Assembly: GCA_003598015.1 (NCBI GenBank)
Contig: QZKE01000006.1
Span: 3,188 to 67,187, forward strand
Direction of reading: 5' to 3'
DNA from: Actinomycetota bacterium
GTDB lineage: Bacteria; Actinomycetota; Geothermincolia; Geothermincolales; RBG-13-55-18
DNA: 64,000 bases
Shown here in pieces: positions 1-18,300 of the stretch. Each line of letters starts with the position of its first letter. Positions within the stretch are counted from its first letter, which is position 1. The notes beneath the pieces were generated by a model. That model saw only the letters and a list, made by a program, of their open reading frames with translations. It was not told where the DNA came from and searched no databases. A program made the translations under genes and the position numbers.

Positions 1-3000
1 GTCCCCGCCTTCATTTGGGCAATACCTACGGAAGGGTCTCCAAACAACCTGCCAACAGTGGATTTAAAGCTGCCCACGACATAAGGAGCAGCGTCATACA
101 GTAAAGAGTACCAAGGGAAGAGCGCCCTTCGTCCATAATTCCACACATTGCCCCAGAAACCTGATCCTGGCTTCAAGGTAGCTTTTGCCCATGCACTGAA
201 AGACATTCTCTCATCGTTGCAGCTCTCCCAGGCGATTATAGATGCAAGGATTTTGGGATCGTCTATTCCAAAGTGTTTTGCCGTATCTTTTATCTGGTCC
301 CAATACTCCGCTACCGTGGGAAGTCCTATATCCTCCACCTTCCCGCGATTAAACAAGCCGTAGATAAATGTGAATAACAGGGGGCCTCCCGACCCCAACT
401 CATGTGGATCCGGCACATCACCGCTTGTAGTTCCCCCACCATATAGGCCGAAGATTCCTAAGAATCCCGCTAAGCCAGGGTGGGCATTGCTGCCAGCCTC
501 GATGGCCGCTTGGCGCGCCGCCAAGAGCTTGTACATGGTCTTCAGAATAATGTTAATTATGTTATCCGCTTCACTTCCGCTATCTGACGGATTATTTGAG
601 GGGTTATCATTTTTTGCGGCCTCTTCCTCGTCCGGAGAACTAGGACCGCCACCTCCGCCTGCAGCATGCTTCTTCCCCGTCAGGTCGCTGTAATTCACCG
701 GGTCGCAGGCGCAGTAGGGGTAGTGGTTCTGGGTTATGGGCTTTTCCATCTCACCGGGCATGGGGTCCTCGGAGAGGAAACGGCCGTGGACCGGTGAGTA
801 CCATCTGGCCCCCATCCAGGTGATGTTTGCTGAGGGGTCGGTGTAGTCGGACTGGTAGCCCAGGTCGCAGGGGAGCGTGCTCGAGAGCAGGCCTCCGTAG
901 GGGTCGTAGACGCGGGAGCCGGAGAGCTCTCCCTGTGCGTTGAGGGAGAAGGTTATGTCCTGGTGGGGGTCCAGCCCCAGGTAGCTTATATCCCCCGCCG
1001 CCTCCTGGGAGAGATGGGTGCCCCCGGGGGTGAGGGTGAAGGAGACCTCCTGGGCGCCTACGCTCTCCCCCGTCTGGTTAAGGGAGGTGCCGTCGTAGGA
1101 GAAGGAGATGGCGGCCGTGCCGTCGTCCCTCTCCGCCAGCCTCTTCAAGGGGTCGTAGGTGAGGGAGAGGTCCGTACTGCCCTTTTCGTAGGAGACGAGG
1201 CGGGAGAGGGGGTCGTAGGCGTAGGTCTCCAGGGGGTTGCTGCCCGCGTCCAGTATGCACTCCAGGTTGCCGAAATCGTCGTAGGCGTAGGTGGTACCGT
1301 CCGGTCCCGTCTCCAGGCGATTGGCGTCGTCGTAGGTGTAGACGGACTCCTGCCCTCCTTTGTCTATGCACTCCAGGTTGCCCGCCTCGTCGTAGTCATA
1401 GGTTATATCGTTTGCGGTGCTGGGAGCGTCGAAGCCTGTGAGCCGGCCCAGGGAGTCGTAGGCGTAGGAATACTCTCCGCTGCCCTCGGAGAGGCCTGTT
1501 ATATCCAGGCTCTCCCTCTTCCCCTGCCCGTTGTAGGCGTAGGTGAAGGAGGCCTGGAGCTGCGAGGTGTCCATGCTGGCGTAGGCCGCCTGGGTTGCGG
1601 TCTGGCCGCCCTCGTAGTAGGTGTAGTCTATGTGTCCCTCCTCCGCGGGCAGGGCCAGGGAGGAGAGGCGGCCGTCGTCATCCCAGGTGAGGGAATAGTT
1701 CCGGTAGGCGGGGTCGGTCACGCCCGTGAGCCGGCCCGCCTTATCGTAGGCGTAGGTGGTGGCCCCGGACTCGGTCTGGCGCAGCGCCAGCTCCCCGGAG
1801 GCCAGGTACTGGTAGCTGGTCTGGTAGCTCTCCGCCCCGGCGGTGGAGGTGACCTGGGCGAGGCGCCCCGTGGCGGGCTCGTAGAGCATATCCACGCCGC
1901 TGTCCCCCTCCTGCGCGCCGGTCAGGTTGCCGCACTCGTCGTAGGCGTATTCGATGAGGGCAAGCTGGGTGGAAGGCTCGTCCATGGCCCCCTCGGCTAT
2001 GAGCCGGCCGCGGCCGTCGTAGGCGAAGGTGAGGGAGCGGTCGGGGTCCGGGCTATCGAAGGTCCGCTTCGTCATCTCCCCCCAGGCGTTGTAGGCGTAG
2101 ACCTCCGTCTCTCCCACCGGGTTCTGCTTTGCTATGGGCCATCCGCAGGCGTCGTAGGTAAAGGAGGTGGAATTCAGCCTTGCGTCTGTGGTCTCCAGCA
2201 GGTTGCCGGTGAGGTCCATGTCGTAGGCGGTCAGCGAGGCGGTGCCGGTGCCGGTACGGGCCTGCTCGTCCCAGGGGCCGGACCACTGCTCCACCCGCCG
2301 CAGGCGGGAGAGGCCGTCGTAGGTGTAGCGGGCGGCGTCCCTGCCCCCCTCCGTCTCCCCCTCCAGGGTGAGGACCACCCTGCCGGCGGCGTCGTTGCGG
2401 AAGGTGGTGCCTATCCTTTCGTCCCCCTCGTAGGGGAGCTCGCTGCGGATCAGGCGTCCCAGGATGTCGTGGTGGTACCAGGTCTCGTATCCCAGGGGGC
2501 TCTGTATCTTGTAGAGGTTCCCCTCCAGGTCGTAGGAGTAGGTTGTGGTGTAGGCGGCTCCCCCCTCGCCCTCTATGATCTGGTAGATCCTGTTGGAGAG
2601 GTTGTCGTAGCGGTACCTCGCCGTCTTGAAGATGTCCGCGGTGGGGGTTGACTGCTGCCTGACCCTCTCCTCGATGACGTTGCCCGACTCGTCGTACTCA
2701 CGGAGGGCGTAGTAATCCCCCGGTCCCTCGGTCTGCACCTCCCGTCCCAGGTCGTCGTAGGTGCGGGTGACCGCCCTCCCCTCCGGGTCGGTCTCTCTCA
2801 CCTTGCGCTCGGAGTCCGAGTACTCGTAGGCGTAGGTGCGCTCGGACGCGGATTCGCCGGCAGCCGCGGGGAGGATCTTCTTGGTCATCCTGCCCGCCGC
2901 ATCGTACTCGTATACGGTTGTGCGCACGGCCTGCCCGGAGCCCGCCGTCTCCCACAGCAGGTTGCCGTTCGCGTCGTATCTCCAGGTCCTTACGTACGGG

Positions 3001-3191
3001 CCAGAGCCCCTCCCCCATCTCTCCATGATCTTCTTTCCCAAGGGATCGTAGGAATAATTGATAAGCTGATCCGGGGAGGAGTAGGTATGGTCCCCGTCGG
3101 TAGTGTCATTGTATATGTTCTCGCGGGTCTCGGCGGCGAGTAGGCCGTCCACCTGGTATTCAAATGACTGAGTAGTTACCATCCCCACCAT
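1..3191 (-). CDS. Orphan Rhs/YD-repeat cassette 2: core 3' segment fused to a lysozyme/SLT-like tip; 3' end lies beyond window start
   Basis: Manual minus-strand translation is open from the TAG at 3273-3275 down to position 1. It is absent from the ORF track because it has no stop in the window. First ATG is at 3191. It contains YD repeats (YAYDxxGN, YTYDDLGR). Core-end motifs WMGARWYSPVHGRFLSEDP and YPYCACDPVNYSDLTGK lie at about 700-830. It is very similar at nt level, by eye, to 5665-8131. Confidence 0.7.
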   Translation of the reverse strand, partial: MVGMVTTQSFEYQVDGLLAAETRENIYNDTTDGDHTYSSPDQLINYSYDPLGKKIMERWGRGSGPYVRTWRYDANGNLLWETAGSGQAVRTTVYEYDAAGRMTKKILPAAAGESASERTYAYEYSDSERKVRETDPEGRAVTRTYDDLGREVQTEGPGDYYALREYDESGNVIEERVRQQSTPTADIFKTARYRYDNLSNRIYQIIEGEGGAAYTTTYSYDLEGNLYKIQSPLGYETWYHHDILGRLIRSELPYEGDERIGTTFRNDAAGRVVLTLEGETEGGRDAARYTYDGLSRLRRVEQWSGPWDEQARTGTGTASLTAYDMDLTGNLLETTDARLNSTSFTYDACGWPIAKQNPVGETEVYAYNAWGEMTKRTFDSPDPDRSLTFAYDGRGRLIAEGAMDEPSTQLALIEYAYDECGNLTGAQEGDSGVDMLYEPATGRLAQVTSTAGAESYQTSYQYLASGELALRQTESGATTYAYDKAGRLTGVTDPAYRNYSLTWDDDGRLSSLALPAEEGHIDYTYYEGGQTATQAAYASMDTSQLQASFTYAYNGQGKRESLDITGLSEGSGEYSYAYDSLGRLTGFDAPSTANDITYDYDEAGNLECIDKGGQESVYTYDDANRLETGPDGTTYAYDDFGNLECILDAGSNPLETYAYDPLSRLVSYEKGSTDLSLTYDPLKRLAERDDGTAAISFSYDGTSLNQTGESVGAQEVSFTLTPGGTHLSQEAAGDISYLGLDPHQDITFSLNAQGELSGSRVYDPYGGLLSSTLPCDLGYQSDYTDPSANITWMGARWYSPVHGRFLSEDPMPGEMEKPITQNHYPYCACDPVNYSDLTGKKHAAGGGGGPSSPDEEEAAKNDNPSNNPSDSGSEADNIINIILKTMYKLLAARQAAIEAGSNAHPGLAGFLGIFGLYGGGTTSGDVPDPHELGSGGPLLFTFIYGLFNRGKVEDIGLPTVAEYWDQIKDTAKHFGIDDPKILASIIAWESCNDERMSFSAWAKATLKPGSGFWGNVWNYGRRALFPWYSLLYDAAPYVVGSFKSTVGRLFGDPSVGIAQMKAG

Positions 3192-3272
3192 GGCCGCGTA
3201 ACCCGAATTGTTGACATCATCATAGGCGAAGAAATCGTATCCCCAGGCCTCCAGACCGACGGGTATGATATG
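700..3272 (-). repeat. Rhs core 3' homology block, copy C (orphan 2)
   Basis: Aligns by eye codon-for-codon with 5665-8131 and, more distantly, with 10358-12960. Indels checked are multiples of 3. Confidence 0.8.
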
Positions 3273-3517
3273 CTAATTGCATCATTAGAGAATATATTAG
3301 ACAAGCAAAATACCTTAATGACAGTGAAGTATTTCCAGCTTGTTATAGTTAGGTAAATCAACTCTTCTATAGCATTGAGCCAGATAAATGGAAATCGTTG
3401 TTGGGGCGGTTGCTTGGTAAGGTAACTTGGAGGGTCAGAGATAGAATCGCCATCAATTATTGCAGTTACAGTCATCACGGGATTATCCTTCCTGTTTACG
3501 CTTTTCATATATTTCAA
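3176..3517 (-). CDS. Hypothetical 113-aa ORF reading across the AT-rich spacer / orphan-2 junction; possibly a remnant
   Basis: ORF track only. The N-terminal ~80 codons lie in AT-rich DNA. The last ~30 codons are an alternative frame of Rhs-homologous DNA. No recognisable motif. Confidence 0.2.
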   Translation of the reverse strand: MKYMKSVNRKDNPVMTVTAIIDGDSISDPPSYLTKQPPQQRFPFIWLNAIEELIYLTITSWKYFTVIKVFCLSNIFSNDAISISYPSVWRPGDTISSPMMMSTIRVTRPWWGW

Positions 3518-3843
3518 AGTAAGGAATAACTATAAACGATATAAGGATAACCCCCTGTTTTTCCGTTTTAAACTCTGGGGAATATTCGGGGGAATAAGCG
3601 ATGAGCGTAGCTGGAAGATAACAATTACAATGTTTACAATCTTTGGTGCCAGCATCTTTTTATTCTTCCTAGTCGTTCTAATTTTGAGTCTGTAGACAAC
3701 TTTTGTTGGACGCTAGAGTATAAAGGGTGACGTAGAATAGGGTCGAGACTAAAAGGCGGCCACGTCATGAAATAGATTGCTCTCCAAAGTGCCTACCTTG
3801 GATCATGGATAGTTGCGCTTATAATTGCGCTTATAATTACCAA

Positions 3844-4632
3844 TTATTCAAAATACAGATTCTCTATAAGATACTCCACTTCATCATCATTGACTTCGCC
3901 CAATTGATTTTGCACTGTTGCTGCATAAGGTATTCCGTCTCTAAATATCAGAAGTCGATCTTGTACAAAGACATCCTCTTCCCTCTGTATTTTGTGAGTA
4001 AAATGAATGCCACAGAATCCGCTTCTTTCGAGTTGGAAGGCCTCTATCCGTGGGGTTTCACCAACGATCGAGAATTCAGCGTACATCTCTTGCATAGCTT
4101 CCTCGATGTCTTTTCTGTTATCCATTACAAAACGCTTCATCTCCCTTAGGTTCCTTGTTTCCGGCGGTCCACCATTCTCGCCAAGCCCGTAAAAATATGC
4201 AATCTTTGAGGAGGTATGGGCTATGAATATCTGTCTATATCCACTGCTGTCAAGATAAAACGCGTCTAGTGATAAACCTGGTTCTTCCTGCTTTGCAGCC
4301 TCCGCCTCTTCGTCGAACTGCCTTCCAACCACCTGCTCATATCCGTCTGGAGTACCAATCATCTTCAATTGAGGGTGGGCTATATATCGAAAAATACCAT
4401 AGCCGACCATTACAGACGTAAATATGCACACAATGATTGCCAAGATTAGGCATATTATCTTCCAGGCGCTCCAATTTATAGAACCTCGTTTCATTGAATA
4501 TAAAACATTGTCAGGATAACAAGTTGAAGGGCACCCCTCATTTTCACTTGCATATAATTCCTCACTACATCCGATGCAAGACTCATTGGATAAGTCGTTT
4601 TCAGCCCCACAGTGAGGGCATAATATAGGCAT
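3844..4632 (-). CDS. Zinc-ribbon / single-TM protein, candidate immunity protein for orphan-1 tip
   Basis: 262-aa ORF. N-terminal CPHCG...CIGC zinc-ribbon motif. One hydrophobic helix (WKIICLILAIIVCIFTSVMVGYGIF). AGGAG 4 nt upstream of the ATG. Low GC. Sits directly 3' of the orphan-1 stop on the same strand. Confidence 0.65.
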   Translation of the reverse strand: MPILCPHCGAENDLSNESCIGCSEELYASENEGCPSTCYPDNVLYSMKRGSINWSAWKIICLILAIIVCIFTSVMVGYGIFRYIAHPQLKMIGTPDGYEQVVGRQFDEEAEAAKQEEPGLSLDAFYLDSSGYRQIFIAHTSSKIAYFYGLGENGGPPETRNLREMKRFVMDNRKDIEEAMQEMYAEFSIVGETPRIEAFQLERSGFCGIHFTHKIQREEDVFVQDRLLIFRDGIPYAATVQNQLGEVNDDEVEYLIENLYFE

Positions 4633-4792
4633 ATTCTCCTAGTCCTTCCTGCTACGTTAACATTTACTTTATTAGGCTTCGCATAACTTCATCAAACCAA
4701 TTTCGAATTCATGTTCGAGATAAAGCATTTTCCGATATTGCACATTGAATAGGTGGATGTTTCGATATGACACGATACACGAAGAATTATCC

Positions 4793-7700
4793 TCAATCCT
4801 TCTTAGGCCACCACCATATTGAACCTCCCACACCTAAGGGAAAACCTATGCTAATGCTAACTGATGGGTTAATATCCCTATCTTGCTCAAACTCAATCCC
4901 TACAGGTCCTGCCTCTATTTCTACAGTGGGTCCTGGCTCCTCTTCAGGAGTCGAATCATACTTGTATCCGGCGCCGAAGCTGAATCCATAGATTCCAAAC
5001 TTTACATCGACTCCTGAATTGGTATCGTAAGTACACTTGACACCCGGAATGCTGCCTGAAACATACCCACTAACTGGAGATATACTCAGATAACCATAGA
5101 GTTTCAAAAACAGCTTCGTTTTGTAATTACCATAACCATAACCAAAAGTATCTCTAATCATTGATTCCAATTCTAATTCGGTTAGAATTCGATTTAGTTC
5201 GGATTCATCCAATGAAGCAATCGCAAGCAAGCCTTCCATAAAATTCCTAAACGCGATATCACCTTCAGCTTTTCTTAGCTTAGCAATGGTTTTTTTCAAA
5301 CCCGCTACGGAGAGATCTTCCATTAGATCTTCCATCACCCCATAATGATGTAACAGGTTCTCAATATTCATAGCGGATTCCGCAAGTATTAGTCCTTGCC
5401 GCCAGGGATTTTTAAGACCGGCCTCTATCGCAGCTTTGCGCGTTTCAATGATCTGGTTTTTAATCCGCTGAATAATCCTCCTTCTATTCCACCTCTCTCT
5501 CTCGGCTACTCTTTCGGCCTGTATGGGATCCGCCATGGAATCCCAGTACTCGCCGGTGGATGTGCCTTCGGGAGCACTTGATACATCCCAGCTAATGGTT
5601 GGTTCGGCTGCGTCACTTTCGTTGATATTGCCTCCATTTGGATCGTAATACTTCCCCGAAAGGTCATTGAAGTTCACCGGGTCGCAGGCGCAGTAGGGGT
5701 AGGGGTTCTGGGTCATGGGCTTTTCCATCTCACCGGGCTTGGGGTCCTCGGAGAGGAAGCGGCCGTGGACCGGTGAGTACCATCTGGCCCCCATCCAGAT
5801 GAGGCTTGCTGATGGGTCGGTGTAGTCGGACTGGTAGCCCAAATCGCAGGGGTCATCTCCCGAGAGCTGGTTGCCATAAGGGTCGTAGACGCGGGAGCCC
5901 GAGAGGTTGCCGGCTGAGTCCAAGGCGAAGGTTATGTCCTGGTGGGGATCCAGCCCCAGGTAGCTTATAACCCCCGCCGCCTCCTGGGCCAGGTGCGTGC
6001 CGGAGGGGGTGAGGGTGAAGGAGACCTCCTGGGTTCCCGCCGTCTCCCCCGTCTGGGCCAGGGAGGTGCCGTCGTAGGAGAAGGAGAGGATGTCCTCGCC
6101 CTCGATCCTCTCGGCCAGCCTCTTTAAGGGGTCGTAGGTGAAGGAGAGGTCCGTCTCCCCCTTAACGTAGGTCTCGAGACGGGAGAGGGGATCGTAGGTG
6201 TAGGTCTCCAGGGGGTTGCTGCCCGCGTCCAGTATGCACTCCAGGTTGCCGAAGTCGTCGTAGGCGTAGGTGGTGCCCTCCGGTCCCGTCTGCAGGCGGT
6301 TTGCGTCGTCGTAGGTGTAGGTGGAGGCACCCTTGGCGGTGAGGTTGCCCGCCTCGTCGTAGGCGTAGGTTATGTCGTTTGCGGTGCTGGGGGCGTCGAA
6401 GCCCGTGAGCCTGCCCAGGGAGTCGTACTCATACCCGTATTCGCCGTCGCCTCCCGCGAGGCCGGCGACCTGCACGCTCTCCCGCTTGCCCGCGTCGTTG
6501 TAGGCGTAGGTGAAGGAGGCCTGGGGATCCAATTCATCCATGCTGGCGTAGGCGATCTGGGTTTCGGTCTGGCCGCCCTCGTAGTAGGTGTAGTCTATAT
6601 GGCCCTCGCCCGAGGGCAGGGCCAGGGAGGAGAGGCGGCTCTCGTCATCCCAGGTGAGGGAATAGGTCCGGTAGGCGGGATCGGTTATAGACGTGAGCCT
6701 GCCCGCCTTATCGTAGGCGTAGGTGGTGGCCCCGGCTTCCGTCTGGCGCAGCGCGAGCTCCCCCGATTGCAGGTACTGGTAGCTGGTCTGGTAGCTCTCC
6801 GTCCCGGCGGTGGAGGTTACCTCCGAGAGGCGCCCCGTGGCGGGCTCGTAGAACATATCCACGCTGCTGTCCCCCTCCTGCGCACAGGTCAGGTTGCCGC
6901 AGGCGTCGTAGGTGTAGTCGATGCGGGCGACCTCCGTCAGGGGATCCCCCTCCACGGCCCCCTCGGAGGTGAGCCGGCCGCGGCCGTCATAGCCGAAGGT
7001 CAGGGCGCGGGAGCTGCCCGAGTCCGGATAGGCCCGCGCGGTCATCTCCCCCCAGGCGTTGTAGGCGTAGACCTCCGTCTCCCCCACCGGGTTCTGCTTT
7101 GCTATGGGCCAGCCGCAGGCGTCGTAGGAGTAGGAGGTGGAATTCAGCCTTGCGTCTGTGGTCTCCAGCAGGTTGCCGGTGAGGTCTATGTCGTAGGAGG
7201 TAAGCGATGCGGTGCCGGTGCCGGTATGGGCCTGCTCGTCCCAGGGGCCGGACCACTGCTCCACCTGCCGCAGGCGGGAGAGGCCGTCGTAAGCGAGCCG
7301 GGTGGCGTCCCTGCCCTCGCCGGCTTTCCCCTCCAGGGTCAGGGTCACCCTGCCCAGAGCGTCGTTGCGGTAGGTGGTGCCTATCCTGGTCTGCCCCTCG
7401 TAGGGGAGCTCGCTGCGGATGAGGCGGCCTAGGAGGTCGTGGTGGTACCAGGTCGCGTATCCCAGGGGGCTTATGGTCAGGTAGTGGTTCCCCTCCAGGT
7501 CGTAGGAGTAGGAGGTGGTGTAGGTGGCTCCCCCCTCGCCCTCCACGATGCTGTAGATCCGGTGGGAGAGGTTGTCGTAGCGGTATCGCGCGGTCTTGAA
7601 GATGTCCGCGGCGGGGGTGGACTGCTGCCTGACCCTCTCCTCGATGACGTTGCCCGACTCGTCGTACTCACGGAGGGCATAGTAGTCCCCCGGTCCCTCG

Positions 7701-7915
7701 GTCTGCACCTCCCGGCCCAGGTCGTCGTAGGTGCGGGTGGTAACCCTGCCGCAGGGATCTGTCTCGGAGACCTTCCTCTCGGCGTCGGAGTACTCGTAGG
7801 CGTAGGTGCATTCACTGTCGGGCTCGCCCGCGGCTGCGGGGAGGATCTTCTTGGTCACCCTCCCCGCCGCGTCGTACTCGTAGGTGGTTACGCGCTGGCT
7901 CGTGCCGGAGCCCAC
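4793..7915 (-). CDS. Orphan Rhs/YD-repeat cassette 1: core 3' segment plus unrecognised C-terminal toxin tip
   Basis: 1040-aa ORF from a GTG. The same frame stays open and Rhs-homologous up to 8131 (TGA at 8132-8134). YD repeats run throughout. Core-end motifs are ARWYSPVHGRFLSEDP and YPYCACDPVNFNDLSGK. They are followed by ~290 low-GC codons (4796-5665). Confidence 0.8.
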   Translation of the reverse strand: MGSGTSQRVTTYEYDAAGRVTKKILPAAAGEPDSECTYAYEYSDAERKVSETDPCGRVTTRTYDDLGREVQTEGPGDYYALREYDESGNVIEERVRQQSTPAADIFKTARYRYDNLSHRIYSIVEGEGGATYTTSYSYDLEGNHYLTISPLGYATWYHHDLLGRLIRSELPYEGQTRIGTTYRNDALGRVTLTLEGKAGEGRDATRLAYDGLSRLRQVEQWSGPWDEQAHTGTGTASLTSYDIDLTGNLLETTDARLNSTSYSYDACGWPIAKQNPVGETEVYAYNAWGEMTARAYPDSGSSRALTFGYDGRGRLTSEGAVEGDPLTEVARIDYTYDACGNLTCAQEGDSSVDMFYEPATGRLSEVTSTAGTESYQTSYQYLQSGELALRQTEAGATTYAYDKAGRLTSITDPAYRTYSLTWDDESRLSSLALPSGEGHIDYTYYEGGQTETQIAYASMDELDPQASFTYAYNDAGKRESVQVAGLAGGDGEYGYEYDSLGRLTGFDAPSTANDITYAYDEAGNLTAKGASTYTYDDANRLQTGPEGTTYAYDDFGNLECILDAGSNPLETYTYDPLSRLETYVKGETDLSFTYDPLKRLAERIEGEDILSFSYDGTSLAQTGETAGTQEVSFTLTPSGTHLAQEAAGVISYLGLDPHQDITFALDSAGNLSGSRVYDPYGNQLSGDDPCDLGYQSDYTDPSASLIWMGARWYSPVHGRFLSEDPKPGEMEKPMTQNPYPYCACDPVNFNDLSGKYYDPNGGNINESDAAEPTISWDVSSAPEGTSTGEYWDSMADPIQAERVAERERWNRRRIIQRIKNQIIETRKAAIEAGLKNPWRQGLILAESAMNIENLLHHYGVMEDLMEDLSVAGLKKTIAKLRKAEGDIAFRNFMEGLLAIASLDESELNRILTELELESMIRDTFGYGYGNYKTKLFLKLYGYLSISPVSGYVSGSIPGVKCTYDTNSGVDVKFGIYGFSFGAGYKYDSTPEEEPGPTVEIEAGPVGIEFEQDRDINPSVSISIGFPLGVGGSIWWWPKKD

Positions 7916-8131
7916 CTTCTCCCACAGCAGGTTGCCATTGGCGTCGTATATCCAGATCTTCTCGTGCGCGGTATCTCCCCGCGCCCAGCGCTCCAGGACC
8001 TTCTTGCCGAAGGGGTCGTAGGAGTAGGTGATGTCCTGGGCGGGGGAGCGCTCATCGGGGTTTCCGTTGCACCTGGTCTCCTCCGAGAGGAGGCCGTCGC
8101 AGGTGTAGTCGTAGGAGGCTATCTCGGTGAA
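5665..8131 (-). repeat. Rhs core 3' homology block, copy B (orphan 1)
   Basis: Starts 26 nt after the stop of the WG-repeat gene. Matches main-gene residues from about DYDYFCDGLLSWETR onward. Confidence 0.8.
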
Positions 8132-8157
8132 TCAATGGAGTATGTTTCTAGCTTCGA

Positions 8158-9258
8158 TTACTGATTACTGCTGATCTTAGTACTTATAGCCGCATAGCCT
8201 TCAGAGAAAGGATTTGCAAAGCAATCTACTTCTATCATAATATCTCCAGATTTATCAATGAATCCCAACCTGTTGTCAACATGGGTCTCAGCCCGGCTAT
8301 CATGGAAACCTAAAGCGACATCAAATCGAGGTTCGATAACCAGTTCCCCGTCTTTGTTGATATAACCGTACTTGCCGTTAAGTAAGACTGGAGCCAAGCC
8401 TTCTTGAAATGAGGACGCACTCTCATATTGGGGCTCTATCACTTCAATCCCATCCTTATTGATATAGCCCCACATATCGTTGATCTTGATCGCGGCCAGC
8501 CCATCTTGAAAATCGTAGGCGAAATCAAAGCGAGGTTCAATTACAACAACCCCTGCATTATCGATAAACCCATAGTTGCCGTTTATCAATATACATTTTA
8601 ATCCCTCACTGAAACCCGTACTTAACTGACCCTCAAGCAGTTCTACAGTCGCTTCTGGTTGCAAGTCGAATACTATTTCACCAAGCCCATTGATCACGCT
8701 ATATCTATCATCCATCCACACAAATGCCAGACCCTCTGAAAAATCGAATGCCCATTTATAAATAGGTTCTATCACCATTCTTCCAGATACATCTATATAG
8801 CCACGCTTTTCAGCGATACTCACACAGGCGAGCCCATCATGGAAAGATCTTGCATAGTCGAATTGCGGAGAAATGATCATATCGCCTGATCCGTCTATGT
8901 ATCCCCATTTATCATCGACTTTAACGGCAGCCAGCCCCTCATGAAAATCCCCGGCTTCCCTATATTTGGGCTCTATAATCATATTTCCATTTTTGTTTAT
9001 AAATCCCCATAGACCACCAAAATCGACCCTCGCATACCCTTCATGGAAATTTGCTGCTTGTTTAAATTGAGGCTCGATTACAATCACGCCGTTTACGTCC
9101 ATGTACCCCCAAACTTCATTGTTGTTAACCATTTTCTGCTCTCTGCCTTCATCCGGTATATCGCTGCCACAAGACGACGATAATAGTGCAAACAACATCG
9201 TTGCCGTTGCTGTCAAAATAATGTAATACCTACTGTATCTTCCTCTCATGAAAATCAC
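8158..9258 (-). CDS. WG-repeat (KWG-type beta-repeat) secreted/lipoprotein, candidate immunity protein for the Tlde1-like tip
   Basis: 366 aa. N-terminal hydrophobic signal ending LLSSSCGS. About nine repeats of WGYIDxxGxxVIEPxFxxAxxFxEGLAxV. Low GC. Lies 82 nt downstream of the main rhs stop on the same strand. Confidence 0.85.
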   Translation of the reverse strand: MIFMRGRYSRYYIILTATATMLFALLSSSCGSDIPDEGREQKMVNNNEVWGYMDVNGVIVIEPQFKQAANFHEGYARVDFGGLWGFINKNGNMIIEPKYREAGDFHEGLAAVKVDDKWGYIDGSGDMIISPQFDYARSFHDGLACVSIAEKRGYIDVSGRMVIEPIYKWAFDFSEGLAFVWMDDRYSVINGLGEIVFDLQPEATVELLEGQLSTGFSEGLKCILINGNYGFIDNAGVVVIEPRFDFAYDFQDGLAAIKINDMWGYINKDGIEVIEPQYESASSFQEGLAPVLLNGKYGYINKDGELVIEPRFDVALGFHDSRAETHVDNRLGFIDKSGDIMIEVDCFANPFSEGYAAISTKISSNQ

Positions 9259-9340
9259 GTCCCTCCGCGACTCTCAACTCAAGCTTTCAAGTTAACAATG
9301 TTTTATCGATTCCAACTCTTATGCAAGATAATGGTACTTA

Positions 9341-12300
9341 TCACCAGGAATCACCAGGATGGCCCGGATTAGTATAACCGACACCTATATCTACGAATAG
9401 GTATGTGTTCGACCAATTATCTGGATTTTGATCATAGCCAAGCCCTAGCAAATCACTAAAGGCATCGATAGATCTATCGAGCTTGTTTCCTAACACCCCT
9501 ATACACCCAGAGGTGCCTGCAGCTCCAGCATCCTCATGTATTAGAAACACCCCTTCCTGTATGAAATTGTCGTTTATATCTCTACTACGTGATGTTTGAT
9601 TATATAGCCATTCCATGGTGGAGCCTTTCATACCTACATTGCCGGCAGGTCTCAGTCTTATTACCCAATCCCCAAAACCTGGAAGCCAAGATTCTGTTTC
9701 TGGATTCTGTCTCCTGGTTAGCCTCCATGCACCCCTTGGAATAGGTCCAATGTCCTCTTGGGTCATCTGACCACCTGGCTGACCCGAATAAGCATCAACA
9801 TGGAACAGGCGTACCTTTCTGCCTCCCCCAAGATACATATACAAGTCAAGATACTTACCATCAAACGTCATTTCGGTATGGCCCGGGCAGAAATAATGTT
9901 TTACATCTCTCCAGAATCTCGTTTTCTGGTCAATGGTCATATTGTTAAGAACATTTATATCTGTTCTCATTAGAAACTCATCAAAATTATCAGACTCTAT
10001 TGCCGCAACTACGACTGCACCTAGACTACCCTCTAACTCAACGTCACGGTCATTCTGAATATCTTCTATTATATCTCTCAAGTATTCCTCCGCTGGATCC
10101 GGCGGGTCTTCTCCGCTTGTATGTTTATCCTGCACCAGTCCATACTCCTTGGCTTTATTCACGACCTCTTCTGCCATGCAAAGCAACCGGTAGGCCTGAT
10201 AGAGATGTTGCAGCGTCTTCTCCAGGTGATCTCTCGTATTCATCAAGTACGAAGGAGGCTCCATGCCGGCGCGGATGTAGAGGTGTATTGCATCTTGTAT
10301 CTGTATCAAAGCCCCGGTGACAGCCTGAATCTGCTGCGCAAGATCCTCCTTTGGCCCCATCCCCGTGGGGTCGAAGGCGTTTATAGGGTCGTCCTTGCAG
10401 TAGAGGTAGGGGTGCAGGGAGAGGGGGTCGCCTGTCTCGCCCTTTAAGGGGTCGACCGAGATGAACCGGGTGAGCTCGGGTGAGTACCAGCGTGCGCCCA
10501 TCCACACCAGGCCGGAGAGGGGGTCCTCGTAGTCCTCCTGGTAGCCCAGGGATGAATCGACGCTCCCCGCCACGGTATTCCCGTACGGATCACATATCCT
10601 CCCTCCCGTGAGGCTCCCCTGGCCCGAGAGGGTGAAGGAGACGTCGGTGTGGGGGGAGAGGCCCAGGTAGGACAGGGTCCCCTGTTTGTCCTGGGCCAGG
10701 TGCGTGCCCCCGGGGTCCAGGGCGTAGGTGGCGAGGGCGCCCCCTGCCGCGTTCGTCTCTTGGATCTGGGAGAGCGAGGCGCCGTCGTAGCGGAAAGCCC
10801 GCTCCGTCTCTCCGCCCACCTTCCTCTCCGAAAGGCGTCCCAGGGCGTCGTAGGAGAGGGTTACCAGGGGGGCCTGCGCGCTCTCCTTATAGGAGACCAG
10901 CTTCCCGAAGCCGTCCCAGGTGAAGGTCTCCGTGCCCTTCTGTACGAGGTTGCCCACCTCGTCGTAGGTGTAGGCGCCCTCGGGGCCGGTGGTTATCTGG
11001 CCCGCGTCGTTGTAGGAGTAGGTCTTGGTCTGCCCTCCGGTGGTCTGCTGCTCCAGATTGCCGCAGAGGTCGTAGTCGTAGGTTATGTCGTTTGCGGTGC
11101 TGGGGGCGTCGAAGCCCGTGAGCCTGCCCATGCCGTCGTAGGCGTAGGAGTAGGCGCCGGAGAGGGCGGTCTGGGAGGGCACGTTCACGGTCATGCCCGT
11201 CCGCCTGCCCCGGTCGTCGTAGCTGTAGTCGTAGGAGGCCTGCAGGGTGTTGGATGAGTCGTAGGCGGTCTGGGTCTCCGTGAGGCCCTCGGCGTAGTAG
11301 GTGTAGTCTATATGTCCCCCCGAGGCTGGGAGGGAGGCCCGCTCCAGCAGGGAGTCGGGGCTCCACTCGAAGGTGAGGGTGCCCCCGCAGACGGAGTCGG
11401 AGGAGGCGGTGAGCCGGCCGGAGATGTCGTAGGAGTAGTTGGAGGAGGCTTGGGTCTGGCCGCCTGAAGTCAGGATGCGGGAGCGCAGCTCCCCGGAGTC
11501 GTAGTAGCCGTAGGTGGTGGAGTAATCCCCCGCCGCTCCCTCCGCGTCGCAGGAGACGGAGGAGAGGCGGGAGGCGCCATCGTATGAAAGGGAGATGGTG
11601 CGGCCTGCGTCCACCCCGTTCGCCCTATCGTATACCGCCCCGGTGAGGTTTCCGGCATGATCGTAGGCGTAGTTGATGACATCGACCTCCGAGGTCCCGT
11701 CCAGCGCCCTCTCGGCTGTGAGCTGGCCGCGGCCGTCGTAGTCGTAGTCGATGGTGCGGTCGGGTTCGGGCTCGGTATAGGTGTGGGTATCCGCCTCCCC
11801 GTATGCGGTGTAGGTGAAGGACTCGGCCTGGCCCAGGGGGTCGGTCTTGCTGGTGGCCCGGCCGCAGGCGTCGTAGGTGTAGGAAGTGGTCTTCTCCCGG
11901 GCATCCGTCTGGGAGAGGAGGCTGCCCGTAAGGTCCACGTCGTAGGAGGTTGTGGCCCCCTCGCCCCCCGCGGGCACCGTATACGGCCCTGGGCCCGCCC
12001 CCGTCCAGGCATCCGTCCACTGCTCCACCCGCCGCAGGCGGGAGAGGCCGTCGTAGGTGTAGCGGGTGCCGTCCGGGTCCGCGTCCCCCTCGAAGGTATG
12101 CGTCTTCCTCCCCAGGGCATCGTAGGTAAAGGAGGTGACCACGCTCGCGCCCCCGGAGTGGGGCAGGACCTGACGCCGCAGGAGGGAGAGGCTGTCGTAG
12201 GCGTAGGTGGTGGTGTTGCCCCCCGGGGTGGTGGTGCTGGTGAGGTTCCCCCCATGGTCGTAGGCGAAGGCGGTGGAGAGGAGCAGCTGCTGCCCCCCGT

Positions 12301-15300
12301 CCTCCGAGAGCACCCGCTTCTCTACGAGCCTGCCCAGGTCGTCGAAGCGCTGGAAGGCCTGGCGGAAGGTGTCCGCTCCGACGCCCGCCTCCTGGCGGGA
12401 GGACTCCCGGATGACGTTGCCGCCGGCGTCGTAGGCGCGCAGCACCAGGGACTCTCCTGGAATCTCGGCCATCTCAACCCGTCCCAGGTCGTCCAGGGTG
12501 CTTATAACGGTCCGGCCCTCCGGGTCGGTCGCGGTCACCTTGCGCTCGGGGTCGGAATATACGAAGGATATGGTGCGCTCGCCTGTGGTCTCGCCGCCCG
12601 CGTCGGGCAGGATCTTGGCCAGCGGGCGATTGGCGCCGTCGTAGGTGTAGGCGGTGCTGCGCAAGGCCGTGCCGTTCCCGGAGGCCTCGGCCACCAGGTT
12701 GCCCGAGCCGTCATAGGCATGCAGCTGGACGTAGCTCTGCCCGCTCCCCAGGTCCCAGCTCTCCCGGGTCTTCTTCCCCGCGGGGTCGTAGGAGTAGGTG
12801 ATCTGCTGGGAGGGGGAGGTGCCCCCGGGGTTGGTATTGTTCCTGGTCTCCCAGGAGAGGAGGCCGTCGCAGAAGTAGTCGTAGTCAGAGACCAGGGTGG
12901 TGCCGCCTATGCTCCCGTAGGTCCCCAGGGAGAAACCGCCCGAGGCTTCCCCCACCGCCGCCCATACGTGCTCAACCTTTCCGAGGCCGTTGTAGTCGTA
13001 GGTGCGGTGGGAGTAGACCGCGTCTTCGGTGCCCTCTCCGTCGCAGATCGTCTCGGTGGTCACGTTGCCCAACATGTCGTAGCCGCGGTGCGCGACCACA
13101 CAGGTGGGAGCTTCATCCGGATACGAGCATATCGCCGCCTCCTGCACCGTCTTGCCCTGAGCGTTGTAGGCAAAGGAGATTGTGGCCGCGGGTGATGCCG
13201 GTCCCGTCCTGGTCTCCGTGAGCCTGTTGCCCGCGGGATCGTATTCATAAGTGGTGGTGATATCGCCCATGCTCTCCCCGGTGGTGCTCGCCTGGGCGAG
13301 CACGCGGCTCGCGGCGTCGTAGGTGTAGTTCACCTGCGCCTCGCGCCAGGTGAGGGCGTTCAGGTTGGATAGGGAGGGGTCGGGCACGGGCCGCGTGGTC
13401 CTCTCGCAGATCACGTTGCCCCGCGTGTCGTAGCTCTTCACGGTGCGGTAGTACATCTCCCCGTAGAGGGCCGAGGTGAAGCGGCGCTCCTCGTAGGCGG
13501 GCCGGCCCGCCGCGTCGTAGCCGTATGTGACGCATCCCGTGGAGTTCGGGTCCACCCTCTTCTTCACCTGGCCGTCGGCGAAATACTCGTAGGAGGTCAC
13601 GCGGTCCTCCCCGTCCACCTGCCGGACCAGGCGCCCGGCGTCGTCGTAGAAGTATCGCGTTTCCCTGCCCGCGTAGTCGCTCTCGGAGAGCAGAAAGCCA
13701 TTGGTGTCGTATTCCTTTGTCGCGCTGGTGTAGAGGGGATATTGAACCCAGCCGCCCGCGGGCGGGTTTGAAGTGTCGCCGGACGTATATACCGTTCTGG
13801 TCCATTCGCGGTCGTCCTTGTAGTACGTGTAGCCGGTCATCAGCCAGACGGCCTGCGGGTCAGAAGATGTATCCCCCCTGCTCCTTATGGTATATGCCAG
13901 GTTGCCGTTCTTGTCGTAGCGGGTGATCTCGGTGGGATTGAGGGTAGCCCCTCCCACGTTGATGGTGTAGCTGGTGTTCTTCTTCGTAACCCCCCGGAAA
14001 CCGTCCGCGACGTCGTCGTCGTACGTATACTCGTATTTGACAAGGCCCGGCCCGAAGGGCATAGAGGCCCCCAGCTCCTCGCTCTCAATCCTCCCATCCC
14101 CGGTATAGTCGTAGAAGTTAATGCACACCTGCGCCCCGTCTCCACTGGGTTGCGCCGGGTTCTCGTTCCAGTCCGAGAAGAGGTCCTCGCGGGTCAGGTC
14201 GCCATAGGCATCGTATATGTATTGCATGGTTGGTTCCTGCCCGTCCTCTTCGGGCCCCGGCTCTCCGTTCACCCTGGGCATGACCTTCAGCGTGGGCAGG
14301 CCCGGATTATTAACGGGCTCCGACGTGTCGTAGAAGTATAGGGTTTCGCTGAGGTCGAAATCTTTCACTTTCACAAGGTTGTTGTTACCGTCGTAGTCAT
14401 AGTACTTTGTATTCCCTGCCCCGTCAGTCTCGGAGGTGAGGCGGTCGCGCTCGTCATAGGTGAACTCCCTCACTCCCCCGTCGGGGCTGATGATGCGCTT
14501 CACCAGTCCCTGCTCCGAGGTGAACTGGGTGATGCGGCCCGCGGGGTCCCGGACCGACTTGCCGTTGCCGTCGTCCCCGTAGGAGTAGATGGTGGACTCA
14601 CCGGCGTTGTTCACCTCCTGGATGAGGCGGTAGAGGGTGTCGTAGCGGTGGGTGGTGGTGTAGCCCCGGCAGTCGGTGACCATGGTCATATGGGAGGGGG
14701 TGGCGTAGGAGAACTGCGTGGCGTGGCCGTACGCGTCCTCCGTCTTGCTGACCATGCCCGCGTTCGCCTCCCCTTCGGCGTAATAGGAGATGGTCTTTGA
14801 GGTCTCGTGGATATCGAGATTTTCGGGTTTGGCGATGCTCTCCAGCCGGTCCTGGAGATTGTATTTGTATTCGGTGGTCGCCCCGTAGATGTCCTGCACG
14901 TGTTCCAGGTTAGCGCTGTTATATGTGTATCCCACGGATATGAGATAGGGATTCTCTTGCCCGTTAAACTGGTTGTTGTATTCGAGCTTGGTTATGTGTT
15001 CACCATCCCAGGTGATATCCAAGCATCTGAATGTCCCCTCACTACCCGGCGCGGTGATCTTGTCCAGCTTGTTGTCGTCTCCGTAATCGAGCGTCAGGAT
15101 GTTATCGCTTGCGCCGTAATCGTCGACGATACGGACCAACCGCTTCGTCTCAGCGGGATCACCATCAACGTGGTCGAACTCCCACAGGTTGCCCCCGGGG
15201 ACCTTGAGGGTGTAGGGGGTGCTGTAATCGGGGTTTCCGGGATCGCTGCCCATCCCTTCGAACCTGCCCGCAGTGAGGTCGTCGAAGACCGTCGGCGGGG

Positions 15301-18300
15301 GCTTGAAGGTATCGCCCTCCTTTGTGTATGTGTCCACCCGGCCGTCGCCGCGGTGCACCTTGAGCGCGGTCATCGCCGGCGGGCTGCCGTTATCGTACAC
15401 CTCCTCGATATACACGTTATAGCTGTAGTCCCAGCCGTTGCCCACGGCGCTCTCGGGATAGGTGCCCCCCGGCTTATAGGAGTTGTAGGTGCGCTTGAAC
15501 TCGATGTCGATGCCCCGCCCGGGCAGGCTGACGTCGGTGGCCTCCTCCGTATAGCTGCCCAGGGAGGTGTTGATGCCCTCGTAGAAGCCGCAGAAGGTGT
15601 CGAAGCCCAGGGCGTTTAGGTCGTCCACCTCGTTCTCGGGCTCGTAGCACATCGTGCCGCGGCCGACATAGTTGAAATAGACCTTGCCGCCGGCGATAAC
15701 CGCGCTGGGTACGGGGCTATCCGCCACCAATTCTCCGTCCGTATAGGGAGACTCCCAGCGCAGGGCGCCGGAGTAGGCGTCGAAGACCATGAGCTTGGTG
15801 GTTGGGTAGTCGAAGGTTCCGACGGTAGTGAAGCCCACGTAGAGAAGGCCTCCTGCAACTGCCGGAGCACCCAGATCCGGGCCCCCGTTAAGCTGATAGG
15901 TGGAGTAGTCCTTGCACCACATGGTGGAGGCGGTGGTGGCATCGAATGCCCAGAGTTTAAGGTAGGTCTGGCAGCCAACGTTGTGGTTGGATACACAGTA
16001 GAGTATGCCGTTAGCATAGGCGATGTCATCTTCGAGCGACGAATAGACGTTCTCGCTCTGATCTCCGCCATATATCAATTGTTCGTTTTGGATCTCTACT
16101 ATCCTGATGCGGGATTGACTTAATCCGTACCAATATTTCACGTAGATGATGCCGTTGTGAATGGTGGGCACGCCTCCATAGTTCCACTGGGGCCAGGTGG
16201 TATCGGGATCGAGAATTAGGTCGTCTTCTTCCGCACCGGTGTTGATGTCGACAGCGCGCAGGCGGCCGCCCTCGGTGAATACCGCCATTCCCTCTAAGAC
16301 CGCCGGCCTCGACGGCCCCCACGGCAATTCAAAGGCGCGGTTCCATCTCTGCACGCCAGGGTTCTCCAGGTCCACGCAGACGAGGTGCGTGGTGGTCGTG
16401 AGCAGGAGCCGGTCTCCGATCGCAACCGGGTTGTTCGTGAACTCCTCCCCCGCAGGGGCGTAGTCCGTCACGAAGTACGGGTCGCCCTCCAGGCTTAGAT
16501 TATCCGCATTCAGCACGTGCAGGCTGTGGTCGGTCACCACGTAGGCCTTCCCGTTCGCCACGCACATGCCCCGGATTCGGTAGTCGGCTGGATCCGTCTC
16601 TTCAAACACGGCTTTCCTATCCCCCGCCTGCTCCCCCGTGGTATATATCTTCAGTACGGTGAACTTTTCATCCCCGCTCTCCGCCACGTAGAGGAAGCCG
16701 CCGCTCACCACCGGGGTTTTGCGGTTCATTTTATTATTTGTGCTATGATCCTCCCATTCTTGCGCGAAGGGCCAGAACATCTCCCCGGGCTTGATCCCCG
16801 CATTATAGTGGGTGTTCTTGAGGTCGTAGCCCTCCATGGGCCACTCCGGCACGCCCGAATAGTAGTAGGGATATGCGCTCGAGGCTGCGGCGTTGCCGGC
16901 CTGATCGAACGCCTTGATGAGGAAATCGTAGTAGCCGAAGCCCCTGGCGGTGAGGTCTACCGTCGCCGTCACATCGTAGTCTACCCCGCTCAGCGGCTCC
17001 TCGTATACCTTCTCGAGAGGCGCCCCTCCGTCGGTTGCCCAGATCTCAACCCTCTCGAGCCCGGACGCGGGCGCGGGATCGGATAGGTGAAAACTGAACT
17101 TGATTATACCCGGCTCGCCTTCGATAGGATTCTCCAGTTCTGCCACACCGATGGTGGGGGGCGTGACCTCTAAGGTGATGGTGTCGGAGTATACGGGGGA
17201 GTACACCCCGCTTATATCGACGAACTGGCAGCGCACCTCCTTCAGGCCCTCGACGGTGGGGAAGAAGGCGGAGTCCAGGATCCAGTCGCAATGTAGCACC
17301 CCGGTGTAGGAGCCCCCGCCGGGCAGCAGCGGCTTGGCATTCTCGGGCACGTAGTCCGGGTTGGCCGGGTCGTAGTTCCAGATCTTCACGTACTCGGCGT
17401 CCTCGGCAAAGAGTTTTAAATTGGTGAAGCCGGTATTGGTGAAATCTCCCGCCACGTCCTTGCCCATTACCTCTATGCTTCCCGAGGGCGGGGCGTTGTC
17501 CACATGTATGATGCGGATGGCCGTGCGTTGATGGCCGGCCGCATCCGAGGCTTGCAGCGCCAGGACGTGCTCGCCGTCGTCCACAGTGGTAGTGTCCCAG
17601 GTGAAGATATCCTCGGGATAGGGGCCGGTGCCTTCTTCCTCGATTAGTAGGTTGAGGTTCTCTCCGTCCCAGTCGTAGAGTGAGCAGGATACGATGTTGC
17701 TATCGTAGGCCACCCCCGCTATGTGCACCTGCTCGTACACCCTCCCCTCCTCGGGAGAGTCGATACGGACGTCGGGGAAGGTGTTGTCGGGGTTTACATG
17801 CACCCTGGCTACGGAGGAGTTGCCGGCCGCATCCGAGACAGAGAGTTCCAGCCACAGCCCCGTCTCCGCCAGCTCCGCGGTGTCCAGGCTGCCGAGGTTT
17901 ACGCCCGGCGGCAGGGTGTCGGATACGATCTCCGTCCACAGGGCGTCCGGGTCCTCGGGGTCGTCCTGGGTGTACCTGAGGCGCCAGGAGGCGAAGTTGG
18001 CATCGGATGCGGTGCCCTGCACGAACAGCGTTCCGCATGCCGCCTCCTCCGGCGCGGGCGAGGTGATGGCCGCGGCAGGGGGCGTGTTGTCCACGTTCGC
18101 CTGCACCGTGGTCTCGCTCACCAGGCCGGCTTGGTCCCGTACCGCCAGCTTCAGGGTGTAGAGGCCGTCGGCCGCGGCGGTGGTGTCCCAGCTATAGAGG
18201 AGGCCGCCCGCGGCCGGGGTCGTCATCTCTGGTGAGAGGGGGATCTCAGCGGGGCCAGTCCCCTCGCCGTAGAAGAGCTGGTAGGCGGTGAAATGCTCGT

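Follow-up and report, generated by a model that had tools for sequence, protein, structure and literature searches.

The closest described counterparts of the locus analysed here are the orphan rhs modules of Enterobacteria, the exported WapA-type toxins, the TelC-TipC pair and the pore-forming tip Tse5-CT. The locus consists of a truncated rearrangement hotspot (RHS) gene, hereafter orphan-1, and a downstream gene for a 262-amino-acid (aa) protein, both located in a 64,000-nucleotide (nt) stretch of the metagenome-assembled genome (MAG) of an uncultured Actinomycetota bacterium (GCA_003598015.1, contig QZKE01000006.1, positions 3,188 to 67,187), which we call the window. It is an orphan RHS cassette of the ordinary kind, with a new, extremely rare payload.

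The enterobacterial orphan rhs-CT/rhsI modules, such as orphan Rhs of Salmonella Typhimurium (PMC3967940), consist of a 5'-truncated RHS core, a variable tip and a downstream immunity gene, and stand in tandem after a full-length RHS gene, with a tip of lower GC content; orphan-1 is alike in these respects, with a candidate immunity gene in the downstream position. It differs in its actinobacterial host, in a main RHS gene with a lipoprotein-type signal, in that no type VI secretion system marker was seen in the window, in orphan and main cores that share only ~65% nt identity, and in an extra linker of 81 aa, which brings IEAGL as a second junction motif.

The WapA-type, Sec-exported RHS toxins of Bacillus subtilis and Streptococcus suis (PMC12704120) resemble the present locus in the N-terminal export signal, in the polymorphic C-terminal toxin with its immunity protein, and in belonging to a Gram-positive-type phylum. 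In contrast to WapA, the immunity candidates described here are lipoproteins or membrane-anchored, and the tips have no sequence similarity. Known WapA tips are mostly tRNases or nucleases that act in the cytoplasm and are matched by cytoplasmic immunity proteins.

Two further systems are comparable in their working. TelC, a lipid II phosphatase of Streptococcus intermedius, exerts its effect outside the membrane, and its immunity protein, TipC, combines one N-terminal transmembrane (TM) segment with a soluble domain that inhibits it in the wall zone (PMC6193138). The predicted layout of the 262-aa protein, a single TM segment followed by an outer domain, is of the same kind, but no sequence relationship was found, TelC is an LXG substrate of a type VII secretion system and not an RHS tip, and the 262-aa protein has an additional, predicted cytoplasmic zinc ribbon. 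Tse5-CT of Pseudomonas aeruginosa is a pore-forming RHS tip with predicted transmembrane and amphipathic helices (PMC9637101, PMC10684867), and its immunity protein, Tsi5, is an integral protein with two TM segments (PMC9637101). Like the orphan-1 tip, Tse5-CT is an RHS tip without predicted enzymatic activity; it is freed from the RHS shell and acts on the membrane. Unlike Tse5-CT, the orphan-1 tip is acidic, without a hydrophobic segment, and beta-rich at its C-terminus, and its immunity candidate has a single TM segment. Immunity proteins of pore-formers are usually polytopic.

An orphan RHS gene with a tip of distinct composition

A sequence-only reading of the window had proposed an unrecognised toxin candidate of roughly 290 aa at 4793..5665, with the strand unstated. 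The observation is real: the peptide is the reverse-strand translation of 4793..5665, where the plus strand is riddled with stop codons, and it forms the 285-aa C-terminal tip of the orphan-1 open reading frame (ORF; 4793..7915, minus strand, 1040 aa). This ORF contains 12 RHS repeat stretches (PF05593, E = 1.6e-36) and an RHS-associated core domain (TIGR03696, E = 3.1e-16), which ends in ...DLSG, one residue ahead of tip residue 1, in agreement with the proposed start of the tip at about 5650. The core/tip junction, DPVNFNDLSGK, was placed at 5651..5683 (minus strand) from the end of the TIGR03696 match and the position of the motif, and the whole tip spans 4796..5650 (minus strand), with its stop codon at 4793..4795.

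The orphan-1 core (5651..8131, minus strand) is truncated at its 5' end. The first possible start codon is the GTG at 7915, but the frame upstream of it is still open and RHS-like back to a stop codon at ~8131, that is, inside the RHS repeats, and inspection of the frame up to that stop codon revealed no secretion signal or N-terminal delivery domain. Orphan-1 is, thus, a 5'-truncated orphan RHS module and not a full-length deliverable RHS effector. The GC content is 0.60-0.67 in the orphan-1 core but only 0.40-0.42 in the tip and in the gene after it, a drop that is the classic mark of imported RHS tips, and the same contrast runs across the locus (0.60-0.70 in RHS cores and 0.40-0.45 in tips and small genes). 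An open frame of 285 codons at ~41% GC is not expected by chance, given a probability of roughly 1e-8 estimated from base composition. Repeats, core end and a variable tip with a composition shift are all present, so that the orphan-1 tip is an RHS/YD-repeat C-terminal tip.

A shared linker precedes the variable payload

The tip consists of two modules. A phmmer search of the tip against 1.84 billion representative proteins returned three matches, namely the tip itself and two proteins (P0002 and P0003) in which the similarity is restricted to tip residues 1-81 or 3-82. An hhalign comparison gave a 99.5% probability over residues 1-81, ending exactly at IEAGL, with nothing beyond. The same linker is joined to another C-terminal domain in the MAG Actinomycetota Ch49 (L001), in a JGI metagenome contig (L002) and in a further locus (L006), and the helix ending in AAIEAG is also found in a second orphan RHS gene of the window, orphan-2. 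Because the linker is shared among tips and homology ends at IEAGL, the true variable payload comprises residues 82-285 (4796..5407, minus strand). The toxin of about 290 aa that had been proposed, therefore, retains a novel domain of ~204 aa, whereas its first 81 residues (5408..5650, minus strand; YYDPNGG...EPTISWDV...TGEYWDSMADP...helix...AAIEAGL) are shared and not unique. Judging from these comparisons, residues 1-81 are a linker or pre-toxin module peculiar to a narrow Actinomycetota lineage.

The two orphans are 75% identical in protein sequence (blastp, residues 1-833) and 84% identical at the nt level, and are alike through core and linker before diverging into unrelated tips, whereas orphan-1 shares just 45% aa identity with the main RHS gene. 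A helix ending in I-[ER]-A-G is present in all three tips of the window as well as in P0002 and P0003, at the point where the similarity between tips stops (IEAGL at 5408..5420, YIRAGM in the main tip at ~10270 and AAIEAGS in orphan-2 at ~490, all on the minus strand). The motif may mark a second site, past the canonical end of the RHS core, at which tips are joined, recombined or processed. In L006, a C-terminal fragment of a tyrosine recombinase (24..467, minus strand) lies beside an RHS orphan with a P0002-type tip, a hint that mobile elements carry some of these cassettes.

Residues 82-285 as a proposed new toxin family

The absence of an assignable motif, as reported from the bare sequence, was confirmed by scans of the tip and its sub-domains at permissive thresholds, in which nothing significant was found in Pfam, NCBIfam, PADLOC or PHROGs; the best, insignificant family scores were those of DUF6733 (E = 0.17) and the NCBIfam model of DNA polymerase III delta (E = 0.13, 11.7 bits against a cut-off of 530 bits). 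Searches of PDB sequences with the tip yielded only noise. A word-indexed search of 5.8 billion proteins retrieved nothing for the tip, nor for a two-sequence profile of its C-terminal half, and in GTDB genomes, JGI metagenomes and IMG/VR any matches were confined to the linker. There was no tblastn match among plasmids, and payload residues 82-285 matched nothing but themselves in the phmmer search of the 1.84 billion representatives.

The only known relative of the payload was identified in an unrelated Logan metagenome contig (L003), where an ORF is cut by the contig edge so that a fragment of 100 aa remains (2..304). This fragment is 44% identical to tip residues 205-274 over 73 aligned positions (pairwise E = 1e-11) and shares with the tip the motifs YDTxSGVDxKxGxY, GxGxKYD, IExG and VGIExE, but lacks its WWW tail. 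We considered whether the beta half could represent degenerate YD repeats and rejected this, as a home-made hidden Markov model of the locus repeats scored the tip at -0.6 bits and the L003 fragment at -0.2 bits, compared with 138 bits for the core control. Based on these comparisons, we propose that the payload, a putative alpha+beta domain of ~204 aa, and its L003 relative are the two known members of a new toxin family.

The N-terminal half of the payload (residues 82-165; 5156..5407, minus strand), for which no homologue was found, is predicted to be helical. Helices between about residues 32 and 185 appear in the AlphaFold2 model only at low confidence (predicted local distance difference test, pLDDT, 50-60), with the last 100 residues unstructured, and the helical hydrophobic moment is not significant (z = 0.75), so that the long amphipathic helices of the sequence-only reading are not supported. 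Foldseek comparison of the AlphaFold model, the check that had been suggested for the tip, was carried out and proved uninformative (best E = 1.2) because there are too few homologues; rows of Bcl-xL and other helical bundles from PDB were set aside as insignificant (TM-score <0.3, from an unreliable model).

The C-terminal half (residues 166-285; 4796..5155, minus strand) is delineated by composition, alternation and likeness to L003. The enrichment in Gly and aromatic residues noticed earlier is borne out (15.8% Gly and 14.9% Tyr, Phe and Trp in the C-terminal 100 aa), and the alternation of hydrophobic with small or polar residues is significant (z = 3.7, 0 of 1000 shuffles), a pattern that fits any beta-sheet domain. 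In the pattern strings, one face of several strands is aromatic or aliphatic and the other is made up of Gly/Ser. One could conclude from this, together with the absence of a catalytic motif from the family-library scans and the precedent of pore-forming RHS tips such as Tse5-CT (PMC9637101, PMC10684867), that the beta half, as oligomerising beta-hairpins or as a glycine zipper, inserts into the cytoplasmic membrane of the target cell, which dies from depolarisation or leakage, and such a mode would be compatible with action outside the cytoplasm. We consider it unlikely. No hydrophobic membrane-spanning segment was found in the tip, the highest Kyte-Doolittle value over 19 residues being 1.13, in the beta half, compared with the usual cut-off of 1.6. 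Glycine-zipper motifs are not enriched (one GxxxGxxxG against 0.38 expected from composition, p = 0.30; five GxxxG against 2.7, p = 0.10), and the net charge of the unique part of the tip is -11, whereas membrane-binding toxins are usually cationic or hydrophobic. The strands between Pro, Gly-turn or acidic breaks measure, by inspection, ~6-9 residues, few for a strand that crosses a bilayer, and conservation does not extend to the WWW tail. Furthermore, the immunity candidate, with one TM helix and a large soluble domain, is unlike the two-TM integral Tsi5 (PMC9637101). The membrane-inserting beta-hairpin or glycine zipper that the sequence-only reading had seen in this half is, hence, not supported. 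A glycine-zipper membrane toxin was rejected on the zipper count and the missing hydrophobic segment, and a helical pore-former of the colicin or Tse5-CT type on the low hydrophobicity maximum, which falls in the beta half, and the single TM helix of the immunity candidate. For a beta-barrel pore-former, which would need oligomerising amphipathic hairpins of bilayer-spanning length, the picture is mixed: the alternation is significant, and the strands are short. Between an integral membrane pore and a soluble binding or enzymatic mode, we somewhat favour the latter.

A downstream immunity candidate with a predicted outer domain

The candidate cognate immunity gene (3844..4632, minus strand) follows the tip after a gap of 160 nt and encodes 262 aa, with AGGAG upstream of its ATG. 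The protein is predicted to consist of a CxxC...CxxC zinc ribbon (~4558..4620, minus strand; weak matches to Zn_Ribbon families of Pfam), a single TM helix (~4393..4464, minus strand; AlphaFold2 helix, residues 56-84) and a C-terminal domain of roughly 180 aa after this helix. Annotations differ in the start codon, giving 188 aa (JGI), 199 aa (NCBI) or 262 aa (GEM), and the 262-aa version alone has both the zinc ribbon and the upstream AGGAG.

Three homologues were identified, of which one is the same protein in NCBI (P0004, 99%) and the other two are P0005 (45%) and P0006 (49%); a search of GTDB genomes with the immunity alignment found no loci. It is the C-terminal domain that is conserved among the homologues, not the zinc ribbon. 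P0006 (262..876 of contig L004) was called without the ribbon, and a CxxC...CxxC ORF (108..356) lies upstream in another frame, overlapping its start. This split probably reflects a frameshift or an assembly error, and the ribbon-TM-domain layout is likely conserved in P0006, too.

In L003, P0005 is encoded downstream of the payload relative, so that the relative of the toxin keeps the immunity homologue as its neighbour. We read this as a toxin-immunity pairing, and it supports the view that the orphan-1 tip and the 262-aa protein form a conserved toxin-immunity pair. The status of unrecognised toxin candidate is, accordingly, supported: no known family, an immunity-like gene downstream, and a pairing that recurs in L003.

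The comparison of the window with L003 also revealed a mosaic. A flank of ~420 bp located 3' of the immunity gene (3422..3843, minus strand) is ~95% identical to L003 1540..1954, whereas sequence divergence is high across the toxin and the 5' half of this gene. Nucleotide homology restarts within the 3' half of the immunity gene (at 4144) and climbs downstream, and the last 21 immunity residues are identical. One flank with divergent cassettes is what is expected of a polymorphic toxin locus. The flank also contains a conserved ORF of 41 aa (3530..3655, minus strand; MLAPKIVNIVIVIFQLRSS...), preceded by AGGAAG, in a region without an Rfam match. In L003, an ORF of 75 aa with two hydrophobic segments (434..661, plus strand) lies between the toxin end and the immunity gene, without a counterpart in the 160-nt gap at this place in the window.

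Where the toxin would act

A zinc ribbon without a preceding signal should stay in the cytoplasm, and the conserved C-terminal domain of the 262-aa protein would then lie outside. Other cassettes of this RHS lineage point in the same direction. The tip of the main RHS gene (9341..10390, minus strand) is Tlde1/YkuD-like, with an H...SGCIG motif and a match to Pfam PF10908 that stays below the curated cut-off (E = 5e-5), and is followed by a lipoprotein with eight WG repeats (8158..9258, minus strand). The same pairing is present in L001, with a homologous toxin fragment (2978..3502; 28% identity, E = 9e-14) and a WG-repeat lipoprotein (3711..4751; 39% identity, E = 5e-55), and the WG-repeat protein may be the immunity protein for this Tlde1-like toxin type. 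The genes that follow P0002- and P0003-type tips start with a lipobox or a TM segment. Thus, the immunity candidates in these RHS loci are all lipoproteins or membrane-anchored and, along with the Tlde1-like main tip and the lipoprotein-type signal of the main RHS protein, they lead us to infer that the orphan-1 toxin acts outside the cytoplasm.

These observations also bear on the idea that the payload is a cytoplasm-acting enzyme, such as a nuclease, NADase or tRNase, with the linker as entry module and the downstream membrane protein either blocking import or unrelated. Many RHS and WapA tips are indeed nucleases or tRNases, the conserved 81-aa linker could serve as a translocation module, and the beta half contains numerous conserved acidic residues. 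However, no nuclease, deaminase or ADP-ribosyltransferase signature was detected in any library scanned, all immunity candidates of this lineage have export or anchor signals, and the conserved part of the immunity candidate is the C-terminal domain predicted to lie outside and not the cytoplasmic zinc ribbon. We hold a cytoplasmic enzyme to be distinctly improbable.

On balance, although with little confidence to spare, we favour the view that the tip is an exchangeable unit from a silent orphan RHS cassette and encodes a soluble effector that acts outside the cytoplasm and is countered by an anchored immunity protein. Orphan rhs tips typically become active when recombination places them on a full-length rhs gene, and orphan-1, which has no export signal of its own, might be deployed in the same manner, its tip becoming part of a full-length RHS protein that has such a signal. 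The tip would then be freed from the RHS shell at the core junction and would attack the neighbouring cell at the outer face of its membrane or in the wall zone, where it could act on a wall or membrane-linked target. Self-protection would be conferred by the downstream protein, with its zinc ribbon in the cytoplasm and its 180-aa C-terminal domain displayed outside and binding the toxin.

Several points weigh against this scenario. The topology of the immunity candidate is predicted only, and the positive-inside rule is ambiguous by inspection; its AlphaFold2 model, built from a four-sequence alignment, is unusable (pLDDT 48.0), with helix 56-84 as the sole confident part, and the same holds for the tip modelled without an alignment (pLDDT 43.7). 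P0005 has a degenerate zinc ribbon, and that of L004 is not in frame. Just 107 nt precede P0006 in L004, and the 33-aa ORF end encoded there is unlike the orphan-1 toxin, so that, with two comparators only, the toxin-immunity pairing is supported once and not twice. In addition, no suitable recombination partner was seen for orphan-1, and recombination of its tip onto the main gene appears unlikely, given that the two are just ~65% identical at the nt level. The partner, if any, would be elsewhere in the genome; failing that, the orphans would be left over from a gene that has been displaced. It may also be that the cassette is never expressed.

A related possibility is that the cassette is a decaying remnant in which the tip has ceased to work as a toxin and the immunity gene alone is maintained, if anything. 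The missing start and export signal of the orphan, the low identity to the main gene and the extreme rarity of the family are compatible with decay, but the frame of 285 codons is intact in AT-rich DNA, the conservation with L003 is at the protein level and is focused on specific motifs, and the immunity gene is intact and preceded by a Shine-Dalgarno sequence. We regard a mere remnant as very improbable.

Organization of the surrounding locus

All genes of the locus are on the minus strand, in the order main RHS gene (9341..21703; 4120 aa, with a lipoprotein-type signal, DUF11 and RCC1 repeats), WG-repeat lipoprotein gene, orphan-1, the gene for the 262-aa protein and orphan-2 (from 3272 to past the window edge, <1). 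The surrounding genes are chromosomal housekeeping genes, including guaA, guaB, groEL, tsaD and glmS. In NCBI, the tip-bearing and neighbouring proteins are deposited as RJP35254.1 and RJP35253.1, both annotated as "hypothetical protein" (MAG, Actinobacteria/Actinomycetota bacterium).

The orphan-2 tip (3..671, minus strand), which is cut by the window edge, follows DPVNYSDLTGK and consists of a Gly/Pro/acidic linker and the AAIEAG helix, and then AWESCNDE...VGIAQMK, which resembles the E-S and G-x-x-Q motifs of lytic transglycosylases. Assignment of this truncated domain to the SLT-type lytic transglycosylases was a guess without Pfam support and was not retained.

No Rfam match was found in 3000..9500, a promoter and terminator scan of 3300..5000 gave nothing exceeding shuffled sequences, and a repeat scan of 3200..5000 was uninformative. 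Several long ORFs run antisense to the GC-rich RHS cores (963..2651, 6599..7432, 7439..8164 and 11657..13195, all on the plus strand); their translations are rich in Gly, Val, Ala and Pro, and they are composition artefacts, not genes.

Implications

It is possible, though rather doubtful, that residues 82-285 and the 262-aa protein are the founding pair of a new class of antibacterial toxins that kill Gram-positive-type cells from outside the cytoplasm, with a new immunity fold that combines a zinc ribbon and a single TM segment. If so, a small acidic beta-domain that hits a lipid-linked wall precursor, or one that builds an unconventional pore, would be examples of the new mechanism. The 81-aa linker with its terminal IEAGL would then serve as a second module, peculiar to the lineage, at which RHS tips are joined or processed.

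It is well established that RHS tips can yield new toxic activities and antibacterial targets. The payload family described here is extremely rare, with two occurrences among roughly 15 billion predicted proteins, and its source is a little-studied lineage of actinobacteria, where each cassette examined appears to be directed at the cell envelope. Provided that the toxin is active, it and its anchored immunity protein could expose a new envelope vulnerability of Gram-positive-type bacteria, and the IEAGL-ended linker would be a new type of modular junction at which toxins are swapped.

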